Position numbers and translations under genes: made by a program. The notes under the pieces were generated by a model that saw nothing but the letters and a program-made list of their open reading frames with translations, searched no databases and was not told the DNA's origin. DNA of 53,947 nucleotides from positions 1 to 53,947 of IMG/VR virus record IMGVR_UViG_3300031972_000800. The stretch is one strand, 5' to 3'. Positions 25,557-52,304 of this stretch are shown piece after piece. Source of the DNA: a virus. Taxonomy: Duplodnaviria; Caudoviricetes. How positions within the stretch are numbered: the first letter of the stretch is position 1; each line of letters begins with the position of its first letter.

Positions 25557-26318
25557 CTATGCTGCGTTTTCCCAGTTTGGATCTGGGGAAGTTGTAGACA
25601 CATCGCCCCACTCAGGAGATTGTGTAGGTTGCGTCTGAGTATAACTCGGATTTTGATTTGGCACAATACGAGCAAACCCAGACGACTGACTTGGTTGTAC
25701 GACGCTGTAACTCGGATCTTGATCCGGAACAATACGACCCCAGACCAACGGTGTGCTGGTGGCTCCTGTTGCAGAAACCCCCTCAATGTTAACAAGAGCC
25801 GTCCCTGTTACAGATACAGAGCCAACACTAGCCGTAGCTGCTAAACCCGTGACATCTATAGATTGACCTAATTCAACAGATACAGAGCCAACACCGCCAG
25901 TAGCCGCTAAACCCGTGACCGCAACGCTGGCGGTCCCTGTCACAGATACAGAACCAACACTAGCCGTAGCCGTTAAACCCGTGATAGATATGTTTGCGTC
26001 CGCAGTAACCACCGCAGAACCAACACCGCCAGTAGCCGCTAAACCCGTGACCGCAACGCTGGCGGTCCCTGTCACAGAAACGGAACCAACACCGCCAGTA
26101 GCCGCTAAGCCCGTGACAGATATGTTTGCGTCCACAGTAACCACCGCAGAGCCAACACCGCCCGTGGCTTCTAAACCCGTGACGGGTACGTCTGCCGTTG
26201 CAACTACAGTTGCAGAGCCAACACCGCCCGTGGCTTTAGGTAGGTCCGTTTGACCCCAAGGCATCTCGCCCCAGCCAAAGCGGCCCCAGCCACCTAGAGG
26301 GACGACAACATCAGTCAC
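25557..26318 (-). CDS. repetitive beta-solenoid virion protein
   Basis: About 7 copies of a ~22-aa VTGLAATGGVGSxxV unit; near-identical DNA copies at 25888 and 26020. Confidence 0.75.
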   Translation of the reverse strand: MTDVVVPLGGWGRFGWGEMPWGQTDLPKATGGVGSATVVATADVPVTGLEATGGVGSAVVTVDANISVTGLAATGGVGSVSVTGTASVAVTGLAATGGVGSAVVTADANISITGLTATASVGSVSVTGTASVAVTGLAATGGVGSVSVELGQSIDVTGLAATASVGSVSVTGTALVNIEGVSATGATSTPLVWGRIVPDQDPSYSVVQPSQSSGFARIVPNQNPSYTQTQPTQSPEWGDVSTTSPDPNWENAA

Positions 26319-28702: not shown

Positions 28703-29109
28703 TAGAACACTCGACCGCCATCACGCATCTTGCGCATTCCGCCACTGGTCATAGGAACATCACGCATTCCCATAGCCGAATTCATTTGATCAGCATTCAT
28801 TCCATCCACTTGGGCACGAGGTTTAGAAACCATTTGTTTCACAGCTTCAACACCTTGCCGGATTTCAGGCATGGCATTTTGAATAGATCCGCCACCCTGC
28901 ATCTCAGGGACTTCGCCACCGCGCATCATCTTAACTTTGCCGCCACGCATCATGCCGGGAACTTTGCCGCCACGCATCATCTTAACTTTGCCGCCACGCA
29001 TCATCTTAACTTTGCCGCCACGCATCATTTTTTTCTTCGCTGCGCTTTTCATTGGCTCAGTTGTGTTTCCGTCTTTATCCAAATCAAGAAAATCAGGTTT
29101 ACCTGGCAT
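28702..29109 (-). CDS. small basic repeat protein with five MMRGG units
   Basis: DLDKDG loop followed by KMMRGGKV repeats, MQGGG and MRDGGRVF. Confidence 0.75.
   Translation of the reverse strand: MPGKPDFLDLDKDGNTTEPMKSAAKKKMMRGGKVKMMRGGKVKMMRGGKVPGMMRGGKVKMMRGGEVPEMQGGGSIQNAMPEIRQGVEAVKQMVSKPRAQVDGMNADQMNSAMGMRDVPMTSGGMRKMRDGGRVF
28930..29028. repeat. 24/27-nt coding tandem repeat
   Basis: CTTAACTTTGCCGCCACGCATCAT at 28930, 28981 and 29005, plus a 27-nt variant at 28954. Confidence 0.95.
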
Positions 29110-30961: not shown

Positions 30962-31579
30962 TTAAGAAGCTACGTCATAGCCAGTGATTGTAATAACTAA
31001 TCTACCCGCTGTATAAGTAGCATCGGTTGTTGCCCCAGCGGTTAAGTAAAGATACTGATCCGCCGCAATATCGCCACCAGCAACTAGACTACCCGCTGCT
31101 AAATCACCTGAGTTGATAATCAAAGTCTCAGTTAAATCAGAAATAGGAGTATCCTCCACACCTGTAGCTTCAGTAGCAGAATGCAGGTTAATATCTGGAT
31201 CACCACCCGCTGGAGTCTCAAGGCACATCATAGTAACGCCGAACACCGTACCTTGGTTTGCCGTTGTAACGCGACCAATGTAAGCAACACCCGAACCGTC
31301 TTTACCAATGATGTCCCCAGCCGCAGTCGAGCGCAAACCAGTAAGGTCAATCAAAATAGTGGTTTTTACGATATTGACGTTTGTTGAAGTATCGCTTTTG
31401 AACCGCTCTACTTGTGTAACGTATACAGCCGCAGTTCCTTCGATGCCAGCACCGCCAGCAGCTTCAGTCGCCATTTTCGATCCGCTGGTAATCGTAATTT
31501 CACCAGTAGTCGCATTTTTAGATACAGTTTCAAAACCGTTTTCAGAACGCACTGGTCCTGAGAAAGTTGTATTAGCCAT
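30962..31579 (-). CDS. virion structural protein (post-capsid gene)
   Basis: MANTTFSGPVRSENGF N-terminus; AGGAG RBS before ATG 31579. Confidence 0.72.
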   Translation of the reverse strand: MANTTFSGPVRSENGFETVSKNATTGEITITSGSKMATEAAGGAGIEGTAAVYVTQVERFKSDTSTNVNIVKTTILIDLTGLRSTAAGDIIGKDGSGVAYIGRVTTANQGTVFGVTMMCLETPAGGDPDINLHSATEATGVEDTPISDLTETLIINSGDLAAGSLVAGGDIAADQYLYLTAGATTDATYTAGRLVITITGYDVAS

Positions 31580-31584
31580 GAAGA

Positions 31585-31632
31585 TCTCCTGTCTTGGCAA
31601 ATGTCAGCCGCACCGTGCGGCTGTCAGGGATA
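31585..31632 (-). ncRNA. structured element downstream of the capsid gene (Mu-gpT-DE-like candidate)
   Basis: Minus strand CCTGAC-AGCCGCA-CGG-TGCGGCT-GAC-ATTTGCC-AAGA-CAGG: an inner hairpin closed by CCTG/CAGG that overlaps the RBS. Confidence 0.5.
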
Positions 31633-31732: not shown

Positions 31733-32644
31733 TTACGCTCCGGGTGAACCGAATACTGCGCGTGGGTCGCTGAAGCCAAAGCTGTAGCGTTCACGAGCTT
31801 TAAAGCGCATGTTGCCAGTGTCGAAATCGGCTTCCATGTTTGTAGACAATGGAGTCCGTTCGAAGTGAACAAAGCCACGAGGCGCATCTGTTTTAATGAA
31901 AAACGCGTCAGGATCTGTCAGGAAATCATTGACGGCGTAACCGTCAGGTAACATCCCCATAGACCGGATAGCGTTTGTATCATTATCAGCAGTGCCAACG
32001 CGAAGGTTTGAAACCATCAAACGCTCTGCAACGAATTGCAGTTGACGCGGAATCATCAGTTTCATGCCACGAAGGGCAACCTTCAAACCACGCTCGTCAA
32101 CAAAACCTGCGATATTGATAAGGGCATCTTCAAGAGATGTCTCGTTCAAATCCGCAGCAGTTGATGGTTCGTTAGCAAATGTTCCACCGTTGGTTAACGG
32201 GTGGTCCGTCGCACAAAGCGCAACACCATCACCGCCAGCAGTCGCGCCAGCAGTAAATGCGTTGTTAAGAACCGCAGCGGCCTTAACTTGCTTTGTGTGT
32301 GCCATAGAACGAGCCAACGCACGAGTGTAACGCGAACCAAGACGATCATACAGATTGTCTTCGATAGCTTCCTCAGTAATAGAGAACGCTAGTGCGATAG
32401 TTTCGTGGTTGTAACGAGCAGTGTACGCCTCGTTAGCGTCGTCAAAGTTTACAGCAGAACCTTCCGATTTGGTTGGTGCCGCTCCGAACCCACTCAACAT
32501 AACTTCCTCTTCGAATGCTCGATCAGAAGATTCTGTTGTGTAGATCTCCGCGTGTTGGTTTTCGTACCTGTCGTACTCCATACCAAACAGCGCGTTGAGG
32601 CCCGGTTCTAGCTCTTTCGCTAGTTGTGCGCGAGAAATAGCCAT
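31733..32644 (-). CDS. major capsid protein (Mu gpT-like, HK97 fold)
   Basis: MAISRAQLAKELEPGLNALFG, ITEEAIEDNLY, RERYSFGFSDPR; strong GGAGG RBS; followed by a terminator. Confidence 0.9.
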   Translation of the reverse strand: MAISRAQLAKELEPGLNALFGMEYDRYENQHAEIYTTESSDRAFEEEVMLSGFGAAPTKSEGSAVNFDDANEAYTARYNHETIALAFSITEEAIEDNLYDRLGSRYTRALARSMAHTKQVKAAAVLNNAFTAGATAGGDGVALCATDHPLTNGGTFANEPSTAADLNETSLEDALINIAGFVDERGLKVALRGMKLMIPRQLQFVAERLMVSNLRVGTADNDTNAIRSMGMLPDGYAVNDFLTDPDAFFIKTDAPRGFVHFERTPLSTNMEADFDTGNMRFKARERYSFGFSDPRAVFGSPGA

Positions 32645-38107: not shown

Positions 38108-38304
38108 TAGAACTCTCCAACAAACCTCTGAGGTCGGGCTATCGGACTAAACCGCCTGTTCACCATACCGCCAGAAGAATATTTACTTTTACCCGCTTTG
38201 CTTAACGCAATAGCAACCGCTTGATCTTGCGGTTTCCCAGCAGCCATTTCTGTCTTGATGTTCTGGCTGATAACACCTTTAGATTTGCCTTCTTTTAGAG
38301 GCAT
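38107..38304 (-). CDS. small basic protein
   Basis: MPLKEGKS...ISQNI...[11 protein letters not shown]; C-terminal YSSGG motif. Confidence 0.75.
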
Positions 38305-40790
38305 TACTGAGTCCTCCGTATCATCGCCTCTCGTTGGACGTTAATACGATCACGGTTAACCTCGTTACGATCATCCGCAATCTGCTCTTGTAACTCTAAC
38401 CGAGCAGAATCAGCAGTGGCCTGTTGAGCCATCTTCGCCTGCTCTAGCTGCAACTTCATCTGATCCAACTGCGCGTCACTCGCTACTTGTTGCTGTTTAA
38501 TCGCCAACTCTTGCTGACGGATCTGAACAAGAGGATCAGGCATCGGAGGCATCGGAGGCTGAATCATCATCATAACTTGCTGCATCAACTGAGTTTCCAT
38601 TTGAGCTATTTGAGCCTCTATCTGCTCAGGAGGAGGAGCCATTTGCTGAATCTGCATTATTTGCTGCTGCGCCATCTGAGGAGAAATAGCTCCCGTTTGA
38701 ACCGCCAACTCTAGTTGCTGCATCTGCTCCTGCATCTGCTGCTCAACCTGCGACTGCACCATTTGTCTGGCCTGCATACCCACATGCTCAAATATATGCC
38801 CCACAAGTGTAGCCGATACCTGCGGGTTGCCTTGAGCAATAGGCATCTGCAAAAACGTAACGTGAACCTGAATATGAGCCTCATGATTCTGATCAGGGAA
38901 AGATTGCGGCAACTGACCGCCAAGCAACTGAGCATTCTCCAACACAGGATCCGTAGGTTGAGGCTCCGGTGGCGGAGGTAAAATCTCATCAATGTTCTGG
39001 ATTTCCAGAGCCTGATACATTCTACGATACGCCTGATAAATGTTGTGAATCTCAGGATTAGCCTGCGCTAACTGCAATTGAGACTGCGCTAACGATACAC
39101 GTTGCGCCATCGAGAAAATGTTTGGATCCGATACAGGTATAACATCTACCCTGTCGTCAAAGTCCTCCGCTTTAATCTGACGAGACGCACCCGAAACATC
39201 ATACGGATACTCCGGAGGCAAGTTCTCCGAAAAAATACGCGCCAACAAACGAAACTCCGTTTTCTGCGCATAATGCAGCCGCTTGTGAATCGCGGACATA
39301 ACCTTCGTTCCACGCTCCATAAGAGCCATGGTAGTGCCAACAGGCATCTCCTGACTGCCCTGCTCAGACAACTGATCCGCAGTCGAAATAAACCTGCGAC
39401 CCTGATCCTGTATCGCTCCCAGCAACTGACCCAGCGTTGCAGAAGGCTCTTTGTACGGCAGCGGTATAATCGCTTCCCGTATGCTGCCTCCTGGCGCATC
39501 AATGTCCCGCCATTCCCCAGGCTGCAACGGCTCGTCGTCATTACGAACCCGCACCCCTCGCGCCTTGAATCCTGCTGGGAGATTGGCAAGTGTACCAGCA
39601 TCGATCAACTGTCGAAGGATACTCGTTGCCGCACGACCAAGGCCCCCGATCATGTGAATCAAACCAAAGCCGTAAAAGCCCAGACCCGGCATAAACTTGT
39701 AATGCACAAAATACTGACGCTTGCGACTCGTCGGATCGTCTTCAGCATAATTGCGGCGTATCGAAAGAACCTCTCCCGAGTCGTGATCTATAGTCACAAC
39801 ATACGGAAGCTTCAAACCCGTAGGCTCTCCAGTCTCCGAAACGTCCTCAAAACCCTCTAAATCCAAATCAACGTGCATCTCCAAAACAGTATGCACATCA
39901 TCGCTGTAATTCTTGGATATACCCTCTAACTCATTCACCTTCTGGCGAACCGGATCTTCCTCAAGATCCTCAGAACCTTTTAACTCAACATCACGGTAAA
40001 AACCCATAAGCTGCAACTTACGAATCTCGTTCTCATCCATACGCAACACATGCGTAACACGAGTAGCCGTCGCCAAATCAGACGCAGAATACGGAACAAC
40101 CAAATCTTGCGCAGGTACAAACTTAGATACCGCCCGCTGCTTAGTCTCGTCGTAATAAACCTTCTTAAACGTCGAACCGCTCAAGGGTAAATAAAACAAC
40201 ATCTGATCAGTGTCCGGATCAAACTCCTCCATCACCTCAGTGATCTGGTAGTTCATAAAGTCCTTAACACGAGCCGCCTGCTCATCAGTGCCCAAATCCC
40301 GTAAACCAACAACCTTGGTCTTTACAGGGCCACCAGAGGGCAACATCTCCTTATACGCTTGAGCCTGAAACTGCGTAACACTCTCCGCAATCATCGGATT
40401 GGTTATCCCACTAGCCCCCTCAAACGGTACAGTGCGCTCCTCGTATTTAAGACCCAATAAGTCCAAACCCTTGGTATACGCCTCTTCCCACTCAGATCGA
40501 GAATCTAAATCCTCGTCGTATAATCCCCGCAAATCCGTGGATAATTCACCAAGTTCGGAATCCGACAACGCCTCCGCTAAATTCATCGTGTGGTCATACA
40601 TCGGCTCTGGGCCCAACATTTCCGGAGCCAAACCAAGAGCCTGCACAACAGCGCCACCCACACCATCGTCCATAATCTCTGCCCCGTTAGGAAACTCCAT
40701 AGGAACATCAATCGGAATCTCTAAATCAGGAAGTCCCGCCGTATCATCGAGGTCCAACCCCGGTGCAACCATGCTTGGTGGTAATGCCAT
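38304..40790 (-). CDS. portal protein
   Basis: Directly after terL; 828 aa with P22-like portal features and a Gln-rich C-terminal coiled-coil barrel. Confidence 0.88.
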
Positions 40791-42256
40791 CAGTAATACT
40801 CCCTTTTACGGGGCCTCCATTCAAGTTCGTCTTCTTCTTCGCCCTTCAAAGAAACAAAGCCTCCTTGTCGGAATCGCATCAGTGCTAACGTCATACTATC
40901 ACAAAAGTCATCATGATCACCATTAGGAAATGAAACTACTTCCTCAATCACCTCATCCGTAAACTTTTTGTCCTCAGGTGCCCATACCATACCAGCTTCA
41001 AATAATGGCGCAACCATGTGCATCCTAGTTACCTTATCACTCCCTTTACCCGGCGAAAAGCCCAAGGCCGGAATACCGCGAAGCCGCAACTCGTCAATAA
41101 GTGGCATTCCCGTCGCTTTCGCTTCGACCAACACCATGTCTGGCTCCCAGTATTCGTGTTCTTCATACGCAATCTCCTTGAGCTCTGGAAAATTCCAACG
41201 CCCACGACGAGCGTCCAATAATACAATGTTGTCCGAACCACCCTCTTCCGGAGTAAATATCCCCCAGGTCGTAATCGCACTGTAATCCGCAGTCTGCTTC
41301 TTCGAAAACGCCGTGTCATACGACTGAATTATATACTGAACCGGAGGAATCTCCTCCTTCTCCCACATCTGCCACCATTCCCGCTTAATAATCGCGGACT
41401 CAGATGTGGTAGGCTGCTGCTGCCACTGCGCATTCCACTTGCCAACAGGCAAAGACGCCTTAATCGATAATAACGCGTCCTTTTCCCAAAATTCAGGCCA
41501 TAAAGGATTATCACTAGGCATAATCGCAGGAAATTCCACAACTTCCCACTGATCCGACATCACATCACTGCCCTGCGCAGCAAGCAATCGACCAGTCAAA
41601 TCCTTCTTACCCCACCGGGTCATAACCAAAATAATCGCACCACCCGGCTGTAACCGCTGCCGAGGACCAGATGTGTACCACTCATACGCGTTGTCAAACG
41701 CACTATCGCTTAACGCATCCTGTTCCGAATGAGGGTCGTCAATAATAAGTAAATCCGCACCACGGCCCGTAATGGCCGCGCCAACACCCGCTGCAAAATA
41801 CTCCGCACCCTTGTCAGTGCCCCACTTACCAGCCCCCTTGTTGTCCTCTTTGAGATTAGTCTCCGGAAAAATCGATTTATACTCTGGATCATCAATTAAA
41901 TCCCTTACCTTCCTACCAAAACGTACCGCCAACTCAGTATTGTGCGTAGCCTGAATGATTTTTAATTTCGGATTTCTACCTAGAAACCAAGCAGGCATCA
42001 AGTAACTTGCAAACTCAGACTTCGAATGTCGAGGGGGCATGTTAATTATAAGCCGCTTGAGCTCCCCTCGTGCAACACGTTCAAGCTTTTCCGCAATAAT
42101 CCGGTGATGACGACCCTCGATAAAGTTGTCATACACATGATGAACAAACGGCATGAACTTTTCTTGCGCCTGCTCGCGCAAATCAAGCGTCTTCTTAGCC
42201 TCGGTTAAGGCTAAAATCTCCTTTAAAGCCTCTTCCGGTAAGGCCTGTAAACTCAT
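40790..42256 (-). CDS. terL: terminase large subunit
   Basis: MPPRHSKS Walker A, LLIIDDP Walker B, YDTA nuclease motif, HDDFCDS. Confidence 0.95.
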   Translation of the reverse strand: MSLQALPEEALKEILALTEAKKTLDLREQAQEKFMPFVHHVYDNFIEGRHHRIIAEKLERVARGELKRLIINMPPRHSKSEFASYLMPAWFLGRNPKLKIIQATHNTELAVRFGRKVRDLIDDPEYKSIFPETNLKEDNKGAGKWGTDKGAEYFAAGVGAAITGRGADLLIIDDPHSEQDALSDSAFDNAYEWYTSGPRQRLQPGGAIILVMTRWGKKDLTGRLLAAQGSDVMSDQWEVVEFPAIMPSDNPLWPEFWEKDALLSIKASLPVGKWNAQWQQQPTTSESAIIKREWWQMWEKEEIPPVQYIIQSYDTAFSKKQTADYSAITTWGIFTPEEGGSDNIVLLDARRGRWNFPELKEIAYEEHEYWEPDMVLVEAKATGMPLIDELRLRGIPALGFSPGKGSDKVTRMHMVAPLFEAGMVWAPEDKKFTDEVIEEVVSFPNGDHDDFCDSMTLALMRFRQGGFVSLKGEEEDELEWRPRKREYY

Positions 42257-44095: not shown

Positions 44096-44665
44096 CTAAC
44101 TAAAATCATACAATGAAGCAACGCCCAGATTCTCAACCGCTCGGCCCAAGGTCCGAGGCCTGATAAACGGACGAGCAGGAATCAATTCAGGATCCGAAAC
44201 AACCGGAATCTCAAAATCAACCGGACGAGCACGAGGACGAACCTCCGCAACCTCAAACTCCCCGTCAGACCGAGGACCACGAGTCGGTCCCAATATGTAA
44301 TCAACATACGAAACCGTCTCACGAGGCAAACCACCACCCTGATCCACACGACCAGGACCAGCGTTGTACGCAGCTAAAGCCTTCTCGTAATTCCCATCAT
44401 ACTTACCCAACATCGCAGATAAATAATCAGCGCCAAATCGTAAACTCTCAACAGGATCCAAACGATCCCTAATAGGACGAACCTCGTACCCAGGATCACG
44501 GGCCGTGTCTGGCATAATCTGAGCTATCCCCAATGCACCCTTCTCACTACGAGCCGTCGAATCAAAACCACTCTCCCGAGAAATCAAACGAACATATATA
44601 TCAGGATCAATACCACGAGACTCCGCCATCGATCTCGCCAACTTCTCCAAATACTCCCGCTCCAT
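44096..44665 (-). CDS. lytic transglycosylase (SLT domain), probably virion-associated
   Basis: ES catalytic motif, GALGIAQIMPDTA, ALAAYNAGPG, ETVSYV. Confidence 0.92.
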   Translation of the reverse strand: MEREYLEKLARSMAESRGIDPDIYVRLISRESGFDSTARSEKGALGIAQIMPDTARDPGYEVRPIRDRLDPVESLRFGADYLSAMLGKYDGNYEKALAAYNAGPGRVDQGGGLPRETVSYVDYILGPTRGPRSDGEFEVAEVRPRARPVDFEIPVVSDPELIPARPFIRPRTLGRAVENLGVASLYDFS

Positions 44666-45671
44666 CACAAATACTCCCGCTTTAAAGACACAAGTCCCCC
44701 AGTTGAAAACTTCTTAGTAGGAAACATCTTCCTATCAAAATCCATAGGATTTATAAAATCCCTGTTAATCGCAGAGCCAAGTTTTTTCCCCTCCGCAGAC
44801 AAGCGCGTAACTTCCGCTTTCGCATCCTCCGGATCCATATCCCGAAACGAAGAATAACCCGTGCCAAACAAATCCTTATATGCCCGCAATAACTGCTCCG
44901 AATCATCCTGTTCAGGACGAACCTTCCCAGTAACCGGACGAGGACTAGGCAACCTCTTCAATATAGGATCTAATTCCTTCATTAAAGAAACTATCCCCCT
45001 AACATCCGATACCCGCTCTAAATCAGGCAGCATCTTCCCATAACGACCCGTCTCCCCATATGTGAACTCCGTAGGCTCAGGACGCTGCTGAGACTTCATC
45101 GCCTCAGTACGAAGATACTCACTAACTCGATCCACAGTCGGTAACGCAGCTAACTCCTCCTCCGTTATATCCCCGCGCAACGCCGCCAATACCCCCTCGC
45201 GTAACTCAGGACTCTGTAAATCCGAACTCTTCGTCTTCTCAGTAATTACCCCAAAAATTCCCGCTTTAGAAAAAGGGTCCGTGGGTCGCGCATACTCATC
45301 CAAAAAAGGAGGATCAAACAACTCAACAAACTTTTCTTCCTGAGCAGCAGAAATCTGGCCTCTGTTCTGAAAAGGACCACCCGCCTCATCCAAAAGAGCA
45401 CCAACCTTGTCATACGCATCACGACCAAAACGATAAATAAATTCCGCAGGATTGTCGTTGTATAACTGACGTAACTCCATAATTCCTAAATGACGATACT
45501 CATGAGCCTCAACCCCAGGACCATATGGACTTGAACGAAGATCCTCGGGCATCGCTATTATGCCCGTCCTCTGAATTACCTGCGGCTCCATGCGTCCATA
45601 CCTAACCGCGTCACCAGCCCTGCGACCGTACTCCGTTATTGGATCCATCACAAATACTCCCGCTTTAAAGA
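44661..45671. repeat. 28-nt direct repeat at two consecutive gene junctions
   Basis: TCCATCACAAATACTCCCGCTTTAAAGA at 44661-44688 and 45644-45671; partial third copy CAAATACTCCCGCT at 44648. Confidence 0.95.
44665..45648 (-). CDS. hypothetical protein with HExxH (zincin-like) motif
   Basis: VEAHEYRHLG; C-terminal FSTGGLVSLKREYL. Confidence 0.7.
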   Translation of the reverse strand: MDPITEYGRRAGDAVRYGRMEPQVIQRTGIIAMPEDLRSSPYGPGVEAHEYRHLGIMELRQLYNDNPAEFIYRFGRDAYDKVGALLDEAGGPFQNRGQISAAQEEKFVELFDPPFLDEYARPTDPFSKAGIFGVITEKTKSSDLQSPELREGVLAALRGDITEEELAALPTVDRVSEYLRTEAMKSQQRPEPTEFTYGETGRYGKMLPDLERVSDVRGIVSLMKELDPILKRLPSPRPVTGKVRPEQDDSEQLLRAYKDLFGTGYSSFRDMDPEDAKAEVTRLSAEGKKLGSAINRDFINPMDFDRKMFPTKKFSTGGLVSLKREYL

Positions 45672-47990: not shown

Positions 47991-48228
47991 CGGTTCTCTC
48001 AATAAAACTCAAATGAAATTATACCCGAAATAATTTAAAAGGGATAGGGGCCTCAAAGGCGGGATTCCCTATAGGGGGAAAACCCGAATGGAATTATTCT
48101 CGAATGAATTTACAAGACCAACATTATACAGACACCAGACGCACCGCACCGCCCAAAACGGGGGGATGGGGGTCGCAAGAGTCCCGATCCGTGCACCCAG
48201 ATTTGCCAAAGTAACCCCTAACAACGTA

Positions 48229-48274
48229 GAGTCGCCTGTTAACCTCGCAAGCTCGGGGCGACGAGAAGAAAAGA
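48229..48274. repeat. hairpin repeat, copy 1
   Basis: GAGTCGCCTGTTAACCTCGCAAGCTCGGGGCGACGAGAAGAAAAGA; second copy at 50950. Confidence 0.92.
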
Positions 48275-49013
48275 CAACGGGCCTTCAGCCCGTGCGGTAT
48301 CCGAACCGCAATCGGCCAACGGCTATAGCCCCGTTGGATCAGGCACTTAGAAACAGAGGAACCGTACCGATATGCGCTCTGACCCGCGCCCGATCTATCT
48401 CCACTGTACGGCGATGGCGCACTGCGCCGGGAACATCCTTCAGATGTTCTCACGCCTTGTGCACATCGTCGTGCAGCGGAGCCTCTTGAGATCGGTCAGT
48501 CGGATCAGGTGCGCCAGCTATACACACACACATTTTGAATGATACCTCTGGTGTGCCCTTCGTATTTATGCGTCGTCAACCCCATCACGTTTATTGTGTC
48601 CTTGCGGACTCATTCTTTTTGATGGGGTCGGAAGGTCACGGTGGACGTTAGGTCATTTGTATTGGACGTAACGTAACCTTGAGGCCCCAACAGATCTCTT
48701 TTGCTCTGGCGGACTTGCGGGCCGTAGTGTCCTCGTCCGGTGAGCAAATATGAGAGGTCAGTCTCAAGTTTACGAAACGTCAAATCCAAAGGACCTTACG
48801 TCAACCGGGACTACCCGAGCGGGGGCGCTCGGCTTCCTTGACCATTCCCTCAACCCAAACAGGAATCAACGGAAAAAAGAATTCCGGGCAACCCTTCTCC
48901 AAGCGTGCTCCGGGCCGCCCGGAATCCTTTTTGCATTTAAACTCTGTTAGGGATCTCGGCGCGATAAATTCAAATTGCAAACCGTAGGCATCATCACAAA
49001 TGTGTGGTGTGTA
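48231..49013 (+). ncRNA. candidate large structured non-coding RNA or leader
   Basis: More than 10 helices found by eye, including long-range closing stems and a 47-bp rod. G-T pairs favour the + strand. No credible CDS. Confidence 0.65.
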
Positions 49014-49036
49014 ACTCAAATATAGGAAATATCAAC

Positions 49037-49468
49037 ATGGATATCACAGTACTCAGATTGTCAGACGAAGTAAGCGAAATCAACCGGGCTCTGCGCCTCC
49101 TCAACTACGACTGGACAGACTTCGACTGTCAGATCCAAGGTGACGGGACAGGGTTCGACGCACAGCGCGTATGGTTCAAGCTCTACTATCGCGGGCTACC
49201 AACAGGCGACAGCAAGTCAGAAACATGGACGTTCAACTTCGACGGCCAGTACAACCTGCAAGACAACCTGCATCAAGTCACCGAAGCTATCTTGGACTTC
49301 ATTCAGAACCTTCCAACAGGCGACACGCTCAAGCAGCAACACATGGTTCGACTCTTCGAACAAGGTGGTCGCCTAGCCGAAGAGCTCGGGATCGACGAGG
49401 ATTTCATCAACCCGCTGGTCGGGATCATGGAAAAGTTGGCAACCAATGCCATCACTCATCGCAAGTAA
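49037..49468 (+). CDS. early hypothetical protein
   Basis: AGGA RBS before ATG 49037; first gene after the non-coding region. Confidence 0.75.
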   Translation: MDITVLRLSDEVSEINRALRLLNYDWTDFDCQIQGDGTGFDAQRVWFKLYYRGLPTGDSKSETWTFNFDGQYNLQDNLHQVTEAILDFIQNLPTGDTLKQQHMVRLFEQGGRLAEELGIDEDFINPLVGIMEKLATNAITHRK

Positions 49469-50884: not shown

Positions 50885-50892
50885 CTAACACC

Positions 50893-50929
50893 GAAGGATA
50901 CCCGGCTCCTACGTCGCTGGGTATCCTTC
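50893..50929. terminator. strong hairpin between convergent operons
   Basis: GAAGGATACCCGGC / GCTGGGTATCCTTC 14-bp stem; U-tract is weak. Confidence 0.6.
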
Positions 50930-50949
50930 TCATCAAAAAGTTTTAAAAG

Positions 50950-50996
50950 GAGTTGCCTGTTAACCTCGCAAGCTCGGGGCAACAAAGAAGAAAAGA
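50950..50996. repeat. hairpin repeat, copy 2
   Basis: GAGTTGCCTGTTAACCTCGCAAGCTCGGGGCAACAAAGAAGAAAAGA. Confidence 0.92.
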
Positions 50997-51069
50997 GTTA
51001 TTGTGTCCTTCGGACTCTCTATCCTAGTTCCCATCCCCGGCAAGCCCGGGCCGGGAACCCGCCGCGCCA

Positions 51070-51150
51070 GAGTCGCAAGGCTCAGGCGCGAGCCGCAAGG
51101 CATAATATCAGCGGCAGCAGAGCCGCAAGGCCTCGAATAGAGACGCAAGG
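51070..51150. repeat. four phased 11-mers GAGNCGCAAGG
   Basis: Copies start at 51070, 51090, 51120 and 51140. Confidence 0.9.
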
Positions 51151-51497
51151 TCCTCGAAACTCTGCCCCTCAGCCCCCTCAATCCCCTTTTCAAGGAGCTC
51201 GGGCCCCTTATCTCCCCCAAATAAATATATCCTCTTGGTAGAGAGGGCCTTTACCAAGTAAAAATTATTGCCCCCGCGAGCCCAATACGCCATATTCCAC
51301 GCAATTTGATGCGGAGATATTTTTGGTTTGTTGTTTTTGACTGCTTTGAGCTCCGCCCAAAAAGAAATACCATCCCAGATTGCATGAACATCCGGTACAC
51401 CACCGCCATGCCTGTTTTCTATGCGGGTTGCGAAGCATTTTTCAGGCAGATTTTTCCTGATCGTGCTCCAAAAGTTGGACTCCGGTCCTCTGCTCAT
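51108..51497 (-). CDS. VRR-NUC/PD-(D/E)xK nuclease (Holliday-junction resolvase-like)
   Basis: E...RIEN...GVPD...WAELK...HQIAW. Confidence 0.8.
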   Translation of the reverse strand: MSRGPESNFWSTIRKNLPEKCFATRIENRHGGGVPDVHAIWDGISFWAELKAVKNNKPKISPHQIAWNMAYWARGGNNFYLVKALSTKRIYLFGGDKGPELLEKGIEGAEGQSFEDLASLFEALRLCCR

Positions 51498-51963
51498 CCG
51501 TTATATCCTCATATGATCCCTCGATTGTGAATGCTTGAGGGTATTTCTTTTGTAAATCCGACAGCCGAGCCACAATTTCATCGCGGGATAGCTGATCTAT
51601 CTGGTTGATATTCTCTCGTCTATCCACAGTCAAACCACCCAGAGCCGAGCGAATTTTTTCTGCGTTGATGGCCGCTGAAAACTGGCCCGCGTCCTCCGCG
51701 CCTTCGGAAAGTTGTTTCAGCCGCTGAAGCTGTCCAATGGTTGTCACCCCGTAAAGCCGTTCTCGCTCCTCCCTGAGCTCCTTTATGTATTCGAGCACAT
51801 GCGGATAGTCTCTGCCGTTTAACAGCACTGCTGCGCGCTCGTTTGCGAGATCAGCAGCATATCCTGCCTTCCTCGCGCATTCCGTATTCGAGTAGATCCC
51901 CTCGACAATGTGCCGAGCGAAAGTTTTCTGTCGATTTGTCAGTTTCTGGATTTTCCCAGCCAT
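51442..51963 (-). CDS. terS: terminase small subunit
   Basis: LTNRQKTFA...TECARKAGYA...V.EYI HTH pattern; GGAGG RBS. Confidence 0.8.
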   Translation of the reverse strand: MAGKIQKLTNRQKTFARHIVEGIYSNTECARKAGYAADLANERAAVLLNGRDYPHVLEYIKELREERERLYGVTTIGQLQRLKQLSEGAEDAGQFSAAINAEKIRSALGGLTVDRRENINQIDQLSRDEIVARLSDLQKKYPQAFTIEGSYEDITDEQRTGVQLLEHDQEKSA

Positions 51964-52304
51964 TTAAAATCCTCCGTATATAAGCAGTTTTATACCCCCT
52001 GTTTACAATCACAGTCAAATCACGAAGGGTTTGAAATTTGCCTAGTTGTCAAAAAGGGGGGGTGTTTACGTTTCTAACGTAAACCGTTTACGCAGTGTTT
52101 ACCTTTAAGGAAGGGGGTTAAACTACTGTATAACAACAATAAAACCCTTGTTTTTACAGATTTTAAACAAAACACTTTTTTTGAAAAAAAAAAAAAACGG
52201 AGAGGGGGGTCAAAAAACTGTATACAGGGGGTTGCAGTAACCATTATTTATCCTATATAACTTCTTACATACCTATTCATTCAATTCAATCTAGGAGTAT
52301 CGAT
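51964..52304. promoter_or_regulatory. AT-rich divergent control region and candidate replication origin
   Basis: Minus strand TTGACT-N18-TATAAA (52018-51989); + strand TTGCAG...TATA (52232-52261); GTTTAC repeats; long A/T tracts. Confidence 0.6.

Follow-up and report, generated by a model that had tools for sequence, protein, structure and literature searches.

A large folded element was found at positions 48231-49013 of a 53,947-bp viral DNA sequence (one IMG/VR virus record with a completeness estimate of 94%, the whole of which is called the window here). The element lies in the 1,035-nucleotide (nt) gap that separates the divergent late and early arms of the genome. Its 3′ domain (48521-49013) belongs to an uncatalogued family of large folded non-coding elements that head the early operon, and this assignment is strongly supported. 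We regard it as evenly balanced whether 48231-49013 as a whole is a large structured RNA that forms the 5′ leader of the early operon and represents a new family, in a marine podovirus-like phage group. For this reading we infer the RNA nature of the element, the + strand as the folded strand and the mechanism. An earlier note on this DNA had suggested an undescribed large RNA ahead of the early operon. Its description of the element as structured, non-coding and uncatalogued was borne out, but none of the functions it had listed could be singled out.

Fold stability, covariation and the wider family

The folding energy of 48231-49013 on the + strand was -335.6 kcal/mol, compared to -253.5 ± 6.5 kcal/mol for 20 dinucleotide shuffles (z = -12.65). 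The same comparison gave z = -10.7 for the - strand, so that the stretch passed the shuffle test that the earlier note had proposed for both strands. Two coding pieces of the window of the same length served as controls and reached z = -1.73 and -1.81. All helices listed in the note were recovered in the minimum-free-energy fold. The rest of the gap (48003-48230) is unfolded (z = -0.02), and the folded element thus begins sharply at 48231. The statement that the gap is almost fully tiled by helices therefore holds for 48231-49013, but not for the left ~230 nt. The fold stops shortly before the early ATG, at a distance of 23 nt from ATG 49037. Four other family members had z = -6.3, -6.6, -2.9 and -6.6, compared to -0.3, -1.4, +3.2 and +0.2 for the 230 nt upstream of them, and the version of the window is among the most expanded and most stable of the family.

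The flanking late protein and the first early protein were used to fetch close relatives. Of these, six sequences from four lineages, with 85-97% identity, were usable and were aligned (alignment A3); RNAalifold predicted 198 pairs for this alignment. Standard pairs occupied 96.1% of the cells, compared to 31-41% when the 3′ partners were slid by 1-3 columns. Changes on both sides were observed at 16 pairs, compared to 7.5 ± 1.8 after shuffling, and none of 500 shuffles reached the observed value. For instance, AUUUAU/AUAAAU is replaced by CCCAAU/AUUGGG in arms that are 400 nt apart, and the closing stem CAUUU/AAAUG by CAUGAAC/GUUCAUG. The central rod (helices 16-19) is invariant across the six close relatives, and covariation consequently speaks neither for nor against this rod.

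The wider family was searched with the invariant 16-mer at 48836-48851 (CCUUGACCAUUCCCUC) as anchor. This 16-mer matched 37 viral contigs. The full framework is present in 18 of them and missing from 19, three of which have too little flank. The combination of the 16-mer and the 3′ arm of the long-range helix P4 matched 40 metagenome contigs, 39 of them with the full framework, and gave no match in representative bacterial and archaeal genomes. Including the window, the family comprises 58 loci with 22 distinct P4 flank variants, from marine, lake and sediment metagenomes. Its members share the order (CA)n, UGCRUCG-UCAA, an insert of 56-263 nt, CCUUGACCAUUCCCUC, an optional hairpin, CGGYGCG-A and (UG)n, and their size ranges from a minimal version of ~230 nt (L106 type) to expanded versions of ~530 nt. 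In the window, the first early gene directly follows this framework with its P4 pairing, an arrangement that defines a member. In the other members the (UG)n arm is some tens of nt ahead of the predicted start, with a ribosome binding site and ATG close behind. The first downstream gene itself varies between members, with at least ten unrelated N-termini.

P4 (48564-48575/48957-48969) provides the clearest covariation across the family. In the window its core UGCGUCG (48569-48575) pairs with CGGCGCG (48957-48963). The R-Y pair of this core covaries in all 22 variants, with arms 100-400 nt apart, and the U.G beside it is invariant on the + strand in all of them. The core is followed by an extension of 5-8 bp, in which at least five of the first seven positions pair in every variant; AU, UA, GC and CG were all found, or nearly so, at each of the first five positions. 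In addition, 13 short family members were aligned (alignment A5, 37 pairs). Here 95.3% of the cells were paired, compared to 34-42% after sliding, and 38 cells showed a change on both sides, compared to 13.6 ± 3.1 in shuffles (38 was reached in 0 of 500). The covariation score was 0.234 vs 0.099. The search for covariation in related phages that the note had recommended thus yielded compensatory changes in A3, in A5 and among the P4 variants. Hairpins H2 to H4 of the 5′ part are more widely distributed than the core, and their stems covary as well.

Upstream of the family core, a box AGT[AT]ACCC was found in 31 of 43 distinct loci, 300-640 nt before P4. Ten of the 12 loci in which it was not found have less than 530 nt of upstream sequence; L107 (1300 nt) and L142 (788 nt) lack it in spite of their longer flanks. 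In the window, the conserved box AGTAACCCC is located at 48210-48218, immediately upstream of the folded element.

The element is accessory. Several distant relatives that were found via their terminase have a gap of ~360-680 nt without the folded domain, in which an AT-rich stretch with TTGAC(A/T) and ACTTGT boxes precedes a similar ribosome binding site. The only portion of the gap that is common to distant relatives generally is 48081-48174; some also keep the H2-H4 region. The close relative L090 retains the sequence corresponding to 48003-48306 of the window, followed by ~900 nt of unrelated sequence (L090 2095-3000) that is itself strongly folded (z = -12.3) and may represent a second family.

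Modules of the element are gained, lost and swapped between relatives, and its closing stem resembles terminal inverted repeats, as would be seen if selfish palindromic insertions, similar to miniature inverted-repeat transposable elements (MITEs), had piled up here without a function of their own. We consider this extremely unlikely, because there is one copy per genome, at the same site before the first early gene wherever the flank suffices, because the nested multi-branch helices covary, and because motifs that are unpaired in the predicted folds are invariant. Dispersed copies, which would be expected of MITEs, were not found: the core occurs once in the window, where only the 46-nt H1 is repeated, and there were no matches in representative bacterial genomes.

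No known RNA class was recognised. With Rfam 15, the gap gave no match at the gathering score, and allowing E-values up to 10 yielded six chance-level matches, each 15-64 bits under the cut-off of its family. Twelve related loci likewise had no Rfam match. The covariance-model search proposed in the earlier note therefore places the element in no catalogue. ARAGORN found no tRNA or tmRNA in the window, in agreement with the note. A blastn search of the gap against 50,697 phage records gave no match, and the four nearest named phages (023Pt_psg01, HTVC027P, DSL-LC04 and HTVC023P) do not contain the core motif, with matches at three mismatches occurring at the control rate. A literature search covering main texts retrieved no description of the element.

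The gap was also checked for coding potential. An open reading frame (ORF) at 48088-48489 (133 aa) is open in four close relatives. When compared to L093, substitutions were distributed 19/21/21 over the codon positions, 3 codons differed synonymously vs 29 non-synonymously, and the start codon was lost. Neither this ORF nor a 109-aa ORF (48124-48453) matched Pfam or PHROG. Judged by this substitution pattern the ORF 48088-48489 is without a coding signature, and the element appears not to be coding.

Strand, transcription and the nature of the folded molecule

Genomic context favours the + strand as the folded strand. The element has a fixed position upstream of + strand genes, and a promoter for the - strand would need to be inside early coding sequence that is non-homologous between members. 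The invariant U.G of P4 points in the same direction, since it would become C.A on the - strand. The earlier note had gone further and taken the G-T pairs to identify the + strand. This could not be upheld, because A.C appositions in P1 and the folding energies of the - strand disagree with the U.G of P4.

Several observations weigh against a + strand leader RNA. The - strand folds at least as well, with lower energy, in all eight variants, and the reverse-complemented alignments had a better consensus energy in four of four cases. Pairing of the 3′ arm of P1 with (CA)n calls for GUGUG, but most of the 13 A5 rows have GUGCG or GCGCG at this position; by our own reading of these rows, this would give A.C on the + strand and G.U on the - strand. 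Under DNA folding parameters 48231-49013 reaches z = -11.5, the same signal as for RNA. The sole sigma-70-like site on the + strand (TTGCCA-18-TAGAGT, 48203-48232, 9 of 12 matches), from which transcription would start exactly at the first hairpin, carries a 9-nt insertion in its spacer in L088, L086 and L087 and is thus not a convincing promoter. Terminator-like sites on the + strand of the early region were not in excess over shuffles, so that there is no call for antitermination. The boxA consensus of lambda-type nut sites is YGCTCTTWA; no boxA-like match was found in the window, and the pentaloops of the + strand read CUUCA. Finally, RNA-library contigs cover the element and reach the early gene of variant phages in four of four libraries from four studies, but these contigs lack strand information, and the flanking genes are covered as well. 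One of the contigs bridges the divergent promoter block into the late gene, and the contigs may therefore derive from DNA.

The energy bias towards the - strand matches the regional composition (A>T, C>G), which is common to the + strand early genes, and hence deserves little weight. Tetraloops were counted over the eight variants as well, with two GNRA, UNCG or CUUG loops on the + strand and five on the - strand. A strand call from energies, from G.U vs A.C counts and from tetraloops gave no decision.

An RNA from the - strand, acting as an antisense to the early leader or as a leader upstream of the late operon, would agree with the lower energies in the eight variants and with the better consensus energies in the four alignments. 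It could start from a promoter-like site (49047->49019) and end at a terminator-like hairpin (48293->48277), and on this strand a GCAA loop at 48600-48611 changes to GUAA. We nevertheless hold such an RNA to be very unlikely. Its -35 box would fall within the first early gene, and members have non-homologous genes at this place; by our own reading of the sequences, the -10 box is kept only in the lineage of the window. The pyrimidine tract after the hairpin is a mixture of C and U in relatives such as L010, the invariant U.G of P4 would be lost, and the energy bias reflects composition. A discrete - strand RNA from 49012 to 48265 was rejected: by our reading of the family sequences, other members have not retained its promoter, and relatives lack a U-rich tract behind the hairpin.

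The element-bearing gaps of three more distant relatives contain no sigma-70-like site on either strand. Together with the TTGAC(A/T) promoter of the element-free relatives, this fits a promoter upstream of the fold, and the conserved unfolded block 48003-48230 may hold both divergent promoters. This block lies between the start of the late genes (48002, - strand) and the folded element. It contains a TATAAT on the - strand (48128->48123), three GAATGRAWTTA repeats and a hairpin composed of a C-run, A4 and a G-run. Two perfect 10-bp palindromes with the common core CTATAG were also observed, CCCTATAGGG in this block (48066-48075) and GGCTATAGCC in the loop of H4 (48321-48330); these might be operator sites. 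The terminator scan found none between the fold and the first early gene in the window. A need for antitermination in the early region was dropped as a candidate explanation, given that terminator-like sites are no commoner there than in shuffles.

The element might also fold as single-stranded DNA (ssDNA) and serve, on one or both strands, as a priming site, an origin, an entry signal or a hairpin promoter. The stability under DNA parameters, the lack of preference for either strand in energy and wobble counts and the lack of a sigma-70-like promoter in three of three related gaps would all be in line with such a signal, and the phage has its own AEP-type primase, helicases (a UvrD-like helicase is encoded in the early arm) and family A DNA polymerase. 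We regard it as improbable, however. The element is absent from close relatives and is accordingly not the essential origin, a tailed double-stranded DNA (dsDNA) phage has no obvious stage that leaves 800 nt single-stranded, and the fixed distance to the ribosome binding site is hard to account for at the DNA level. Moreover, the stems have no -35 and -10 boxes, unlike Frpo as characterised in PMC11541004. No sigma-70-like sites were found in the gaps of L116, L125 and L117, and none on the + strand inside the folded part of the window. If the element were an ssDNA signal, this would be unusual for a tailed dsDNA phage.

Proposed mode of action and comparison with known systems

In our model of the early leader RNA, transcription of the + strand would begin in the unstructured block 48003-48230, and the nascent leader would fold into the hairpins H2, H3 and H4, the 140-nt rod and the 490-nt domain. 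P1, P2 and P4 would then join the ends of this domain, at a distance of ~20 nt from the downstream ribosome binding site that serves the first early gene. The leader is expected to act in cis on early expression, most likely as a processing and stability module. The P1/P2 duplex (25-30 bp) resembles a substrate of RNase III, an enzyme that cuts duplexes of ~20 bp or longer, and cleavage at this position would produce an early mRNA with a short leader and release a compact RNA of ~500 nt. Alternatively, the leader could tune translation or elongation of the early operon by serving as a platform for a protein or RNA polymerase. The hairpins, some of which have recurring loops, and the invariant junction CAUUCCCUC resemble sites that a protein, RNA polymerase or another part of the RNA would recognise.

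A large RNA that acts in trans, either stand-alone or released, is unlikely but deserves consideration; it could be a decoy or sponge for host factors or defence systems, or an RNA-only assembly, and the early position would ensure that it is synthesised first. Its size and stability far exceed the apparent needs of a leader. The accessory nature of the element, with close relatives having a short gap without it and a replacement of z = -12.3 in L090, would suit such an RNA, as would the invariant blocks amid fast-changing arms and the expansions of 56-263 nt, which are seen in large ornate RNAs. On the other hand, the fold and the early gene are not separated by a terminator in the window, and the close distance to the ribosome binding site, which is conserved, makes coupling in cis more likely. 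The two modes are not mutually exclusive, since cleavage of the leader would both mature the mRNA and release an RNA.

Going further, we tentatively raise the possibility, which is doubtful at present, that the family represents a new class of giant ornate phage RNAs of 230-830 nt with a conserved three-way core and free-growing arms. These would be made first and act beyond cis-regulation, for example as a defence or nuclease decoy or as a self-assembling particle similar to ROOL and GOLLD. The neighbouring locus would then be a hot spot for the mutual replacement of unrelated structured RNAs, among them the 900-nt stretch of L090.

The leader RNA reading can be compared with known early leaders. 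In lambda, the N-leader precedes N and contains nutL together with a hairpin for RNase III; T7 has RNase III sites in its early region. In these phages, as proposed for the window, the early promoter is separated from the first early gene by a structured leader, in which short hairpins with specific loops give way to a long duplex close to the ribosome binding site. However, the element described here is 3-4 times longer and has no boxA-like motif. In addition, its loops are CUUCA and YCGA, whereas boxB loops are purine-rich, and RNase III cleavage is a prediction here. Structured 5′ untranslated regions (UTRs) that tune the first-expressed genes of phages are known as well and have a comparable position ahead of such genes, but in the window there is no adjacent Aca-type regulator.

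The put RNA of phage HK022 has a length of ~70 nt and forms two stem-loops. According to PMC9378689, put RNA is a cis-acting nascent element of phage early transcripts that works untranslated. A cis-acting RNA element of an early transcript is likewise proposed here; in contrast to put, the window shows no excess of terminators to suppress. Because of the absence of boxA, of a terminator excess and of -35/-10 boxes in stems, we do not claim that the element belongs to the lambda, put or Frpo systems.

GOLLD and ROOL are RNAs that have been associated with phages. With these two and OLE, the element shares a length of several hundred nt, a multi-branched structure and variable expansions around conserved junctions (PMC12286853); phage, GOLLD and ROOL are mentioned together in that paper. 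It differs from them in that no Rfam model matches and in its fixed position beside a ribosome binding site. Frpo and ssi elements are likewise long, folded and located directly before the first genes that are expressed after entry. In PMC11541004, Frpo is presented with -35 and -10 boxes in a stem and as functioning on the transferred ssDNA of plasmid leading regions, whereas the element lacks such boxes and is found in a dsDNA phage.

Architecture of the element and neighbouring features

All parts of the element are given here for the + strand. It starts with hairpin H1 (GUCGCC...GGCGAC), which together with a purine tract behind it spans 48231-48275; H1 is missing from family members such as L116 and L125. 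A second copy of H1 (50950-50996) is 91% identical, and its C>U and G>A changes preserve the stem. This copy is located in a second non-coding stretch between convergent genes (50885-51200, z = -4.2), which, besides the H1 copy with its compensatory stem change, contains a near-copy of UUAUUGUGUCCUU(G)CGGACUC and four tandem GCAA-capped hairpins (~51066-51160).

H2 (48277-48293) has a 6-bp stem with a CUUCA loop and is present in the minimum-free-energy fold. Its stem occurs as ACGGGC/GCCCGU, ACGAUC/GAUCGU and AUGGCC/GGCCAU with a similar loop throughout. In alignment A6, both sides change at four of six pairs, and the loop is CUUCA in 5 of 12 rows. H3 (GCGGU-AUCCGA-ACCGC, 48294-48309) is followed by the conserved linker AGUCG. 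Its stem GCGGU/ACCGC changes to UCAGU/ACUGA or UCGGU/ACCGA in relatives, and the loop motif YCGA is present in 12 of 12 rows. H4 (48312-48370), also part of the minimum-free-energy fold, consists of GCCAACGG/CCGUUGG (48315-48337) and outer closing pairs; other stems occupy its position in L090, L098, L125 and L133. The same fold contains the nested 140-nt rod (48374-48514) with the apex GAACAUC-CUUCA-GAUGUUC (48431-48449). The base of this rod exists in three unrelated, fully paired versions, CUCUGACC/GGUCAG, CAGUCAGG/CCUGACUG and CUAGAAGG/CCUUCUAG, with an identical apex in all of them, and helix 5 of A3 within the rod has changes on both sides at five pairs.

The 3′ domain, the family core, is defined by the fold and by covariation. 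Its closing stems P1 (48521-48535/48998-49013) and P2 (48539-48547/48986-48994) together form ~27 pairs with small bulges, and inside P4 follows P5 (48630-48638/48839-48848). The invariant motif at 48836-48851, which is present in a single copy in the window, comprises the 3′ arm of P5 and the pyrimidine junction CAUUCCCUC, which is unpaired in the predicted folds of L106, L107 and L119. Two parts are lineage-specific. One is the expansion rod within the P5 insert with the hairpin CCGAGCG/CGCUCGG (48639-48829). The other (48881-48932) is the hairpin AUUCCGGGC/GCCCGGAAU, which precedes a U tract, was flagged by the terminator scan and looks like a terminator on the + strand; it is replaced by AUCUCGGGC/GCCCGAGAU in L091 and deleted in the L093 type. 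Downstream of the domain, the ribosome binding site AGGA (49024-49027) and the ATG (49037) of the first early gene occupy 49024-49039.

The late genes extend on the - strand from 48002 down to 11833. The early and replication genes occupy the + strand; they begin with the ATG at 49037, cross the record ends and reach 11836. The late arm encodes the terminase large subunit (40790-42256), the portal (38304-40790), an internal virion protein with a transglycosylase domain (44096-44668), the major head protein (31733-32644) and tail fibres. The set of portal, terminase and internal virion protein with its transglycosylase domain indicates a dsDNA phage with a tail. By terminase (~54-61% identity), the nearest named relatives are 023Pt_psg01, HTVC027P and HTVC023P (both pelagiphages) and DSL-LC04.

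The first late genes of the window encode proteins of 784, 328, 190, 142 and 459 aa. The neighbouring 784-aa protein, which was considered as a possible special polymerase, had no match in Pfam or PHROG and nothing in the ESM Atlas. Relatives have single giant ORFs of 1538-2241 aa at this location beside the gap (L081 1827-8552, L082 2284-8961 and L078 5388-10004). These are probably fused ejection or internal virion proteins, because the 190-aa protein of the window contains the transglycosylase domain. In-frame tandem repeats with units of 66 nt and 24-27 nt were seen inside late genes at 25798-26235 and 28891-29052. Shortly downstream of the gene for the major head protein, the - strand at 31577-31629 matched the Rfam Mu-gpT-DE RNA (72.1 bits vs a gathering score of 49). 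Among the early genes, an opposite-strand cassette (51108-51963, - strand) encodes a terminase-small-subunit-like protein (51442-51963) and an HNH/endonuclease-like protein (51108-51497); it is followed by an AT-rich stretch with a long A run at 52000-52300.

Few large structured phage RNAs are known, and their functions are mostly open questions. The family described here is well defined, common in metagenomes and rich in covariation. Its members head the early operon, from which the take-over of the host begins, in a phage group that is abundant but uncultured. With its natural minimal and expanded versions, its plain-promoter knock-outs and at least one unrelated replacement, it offers a ready-made system for the study of RNA function.

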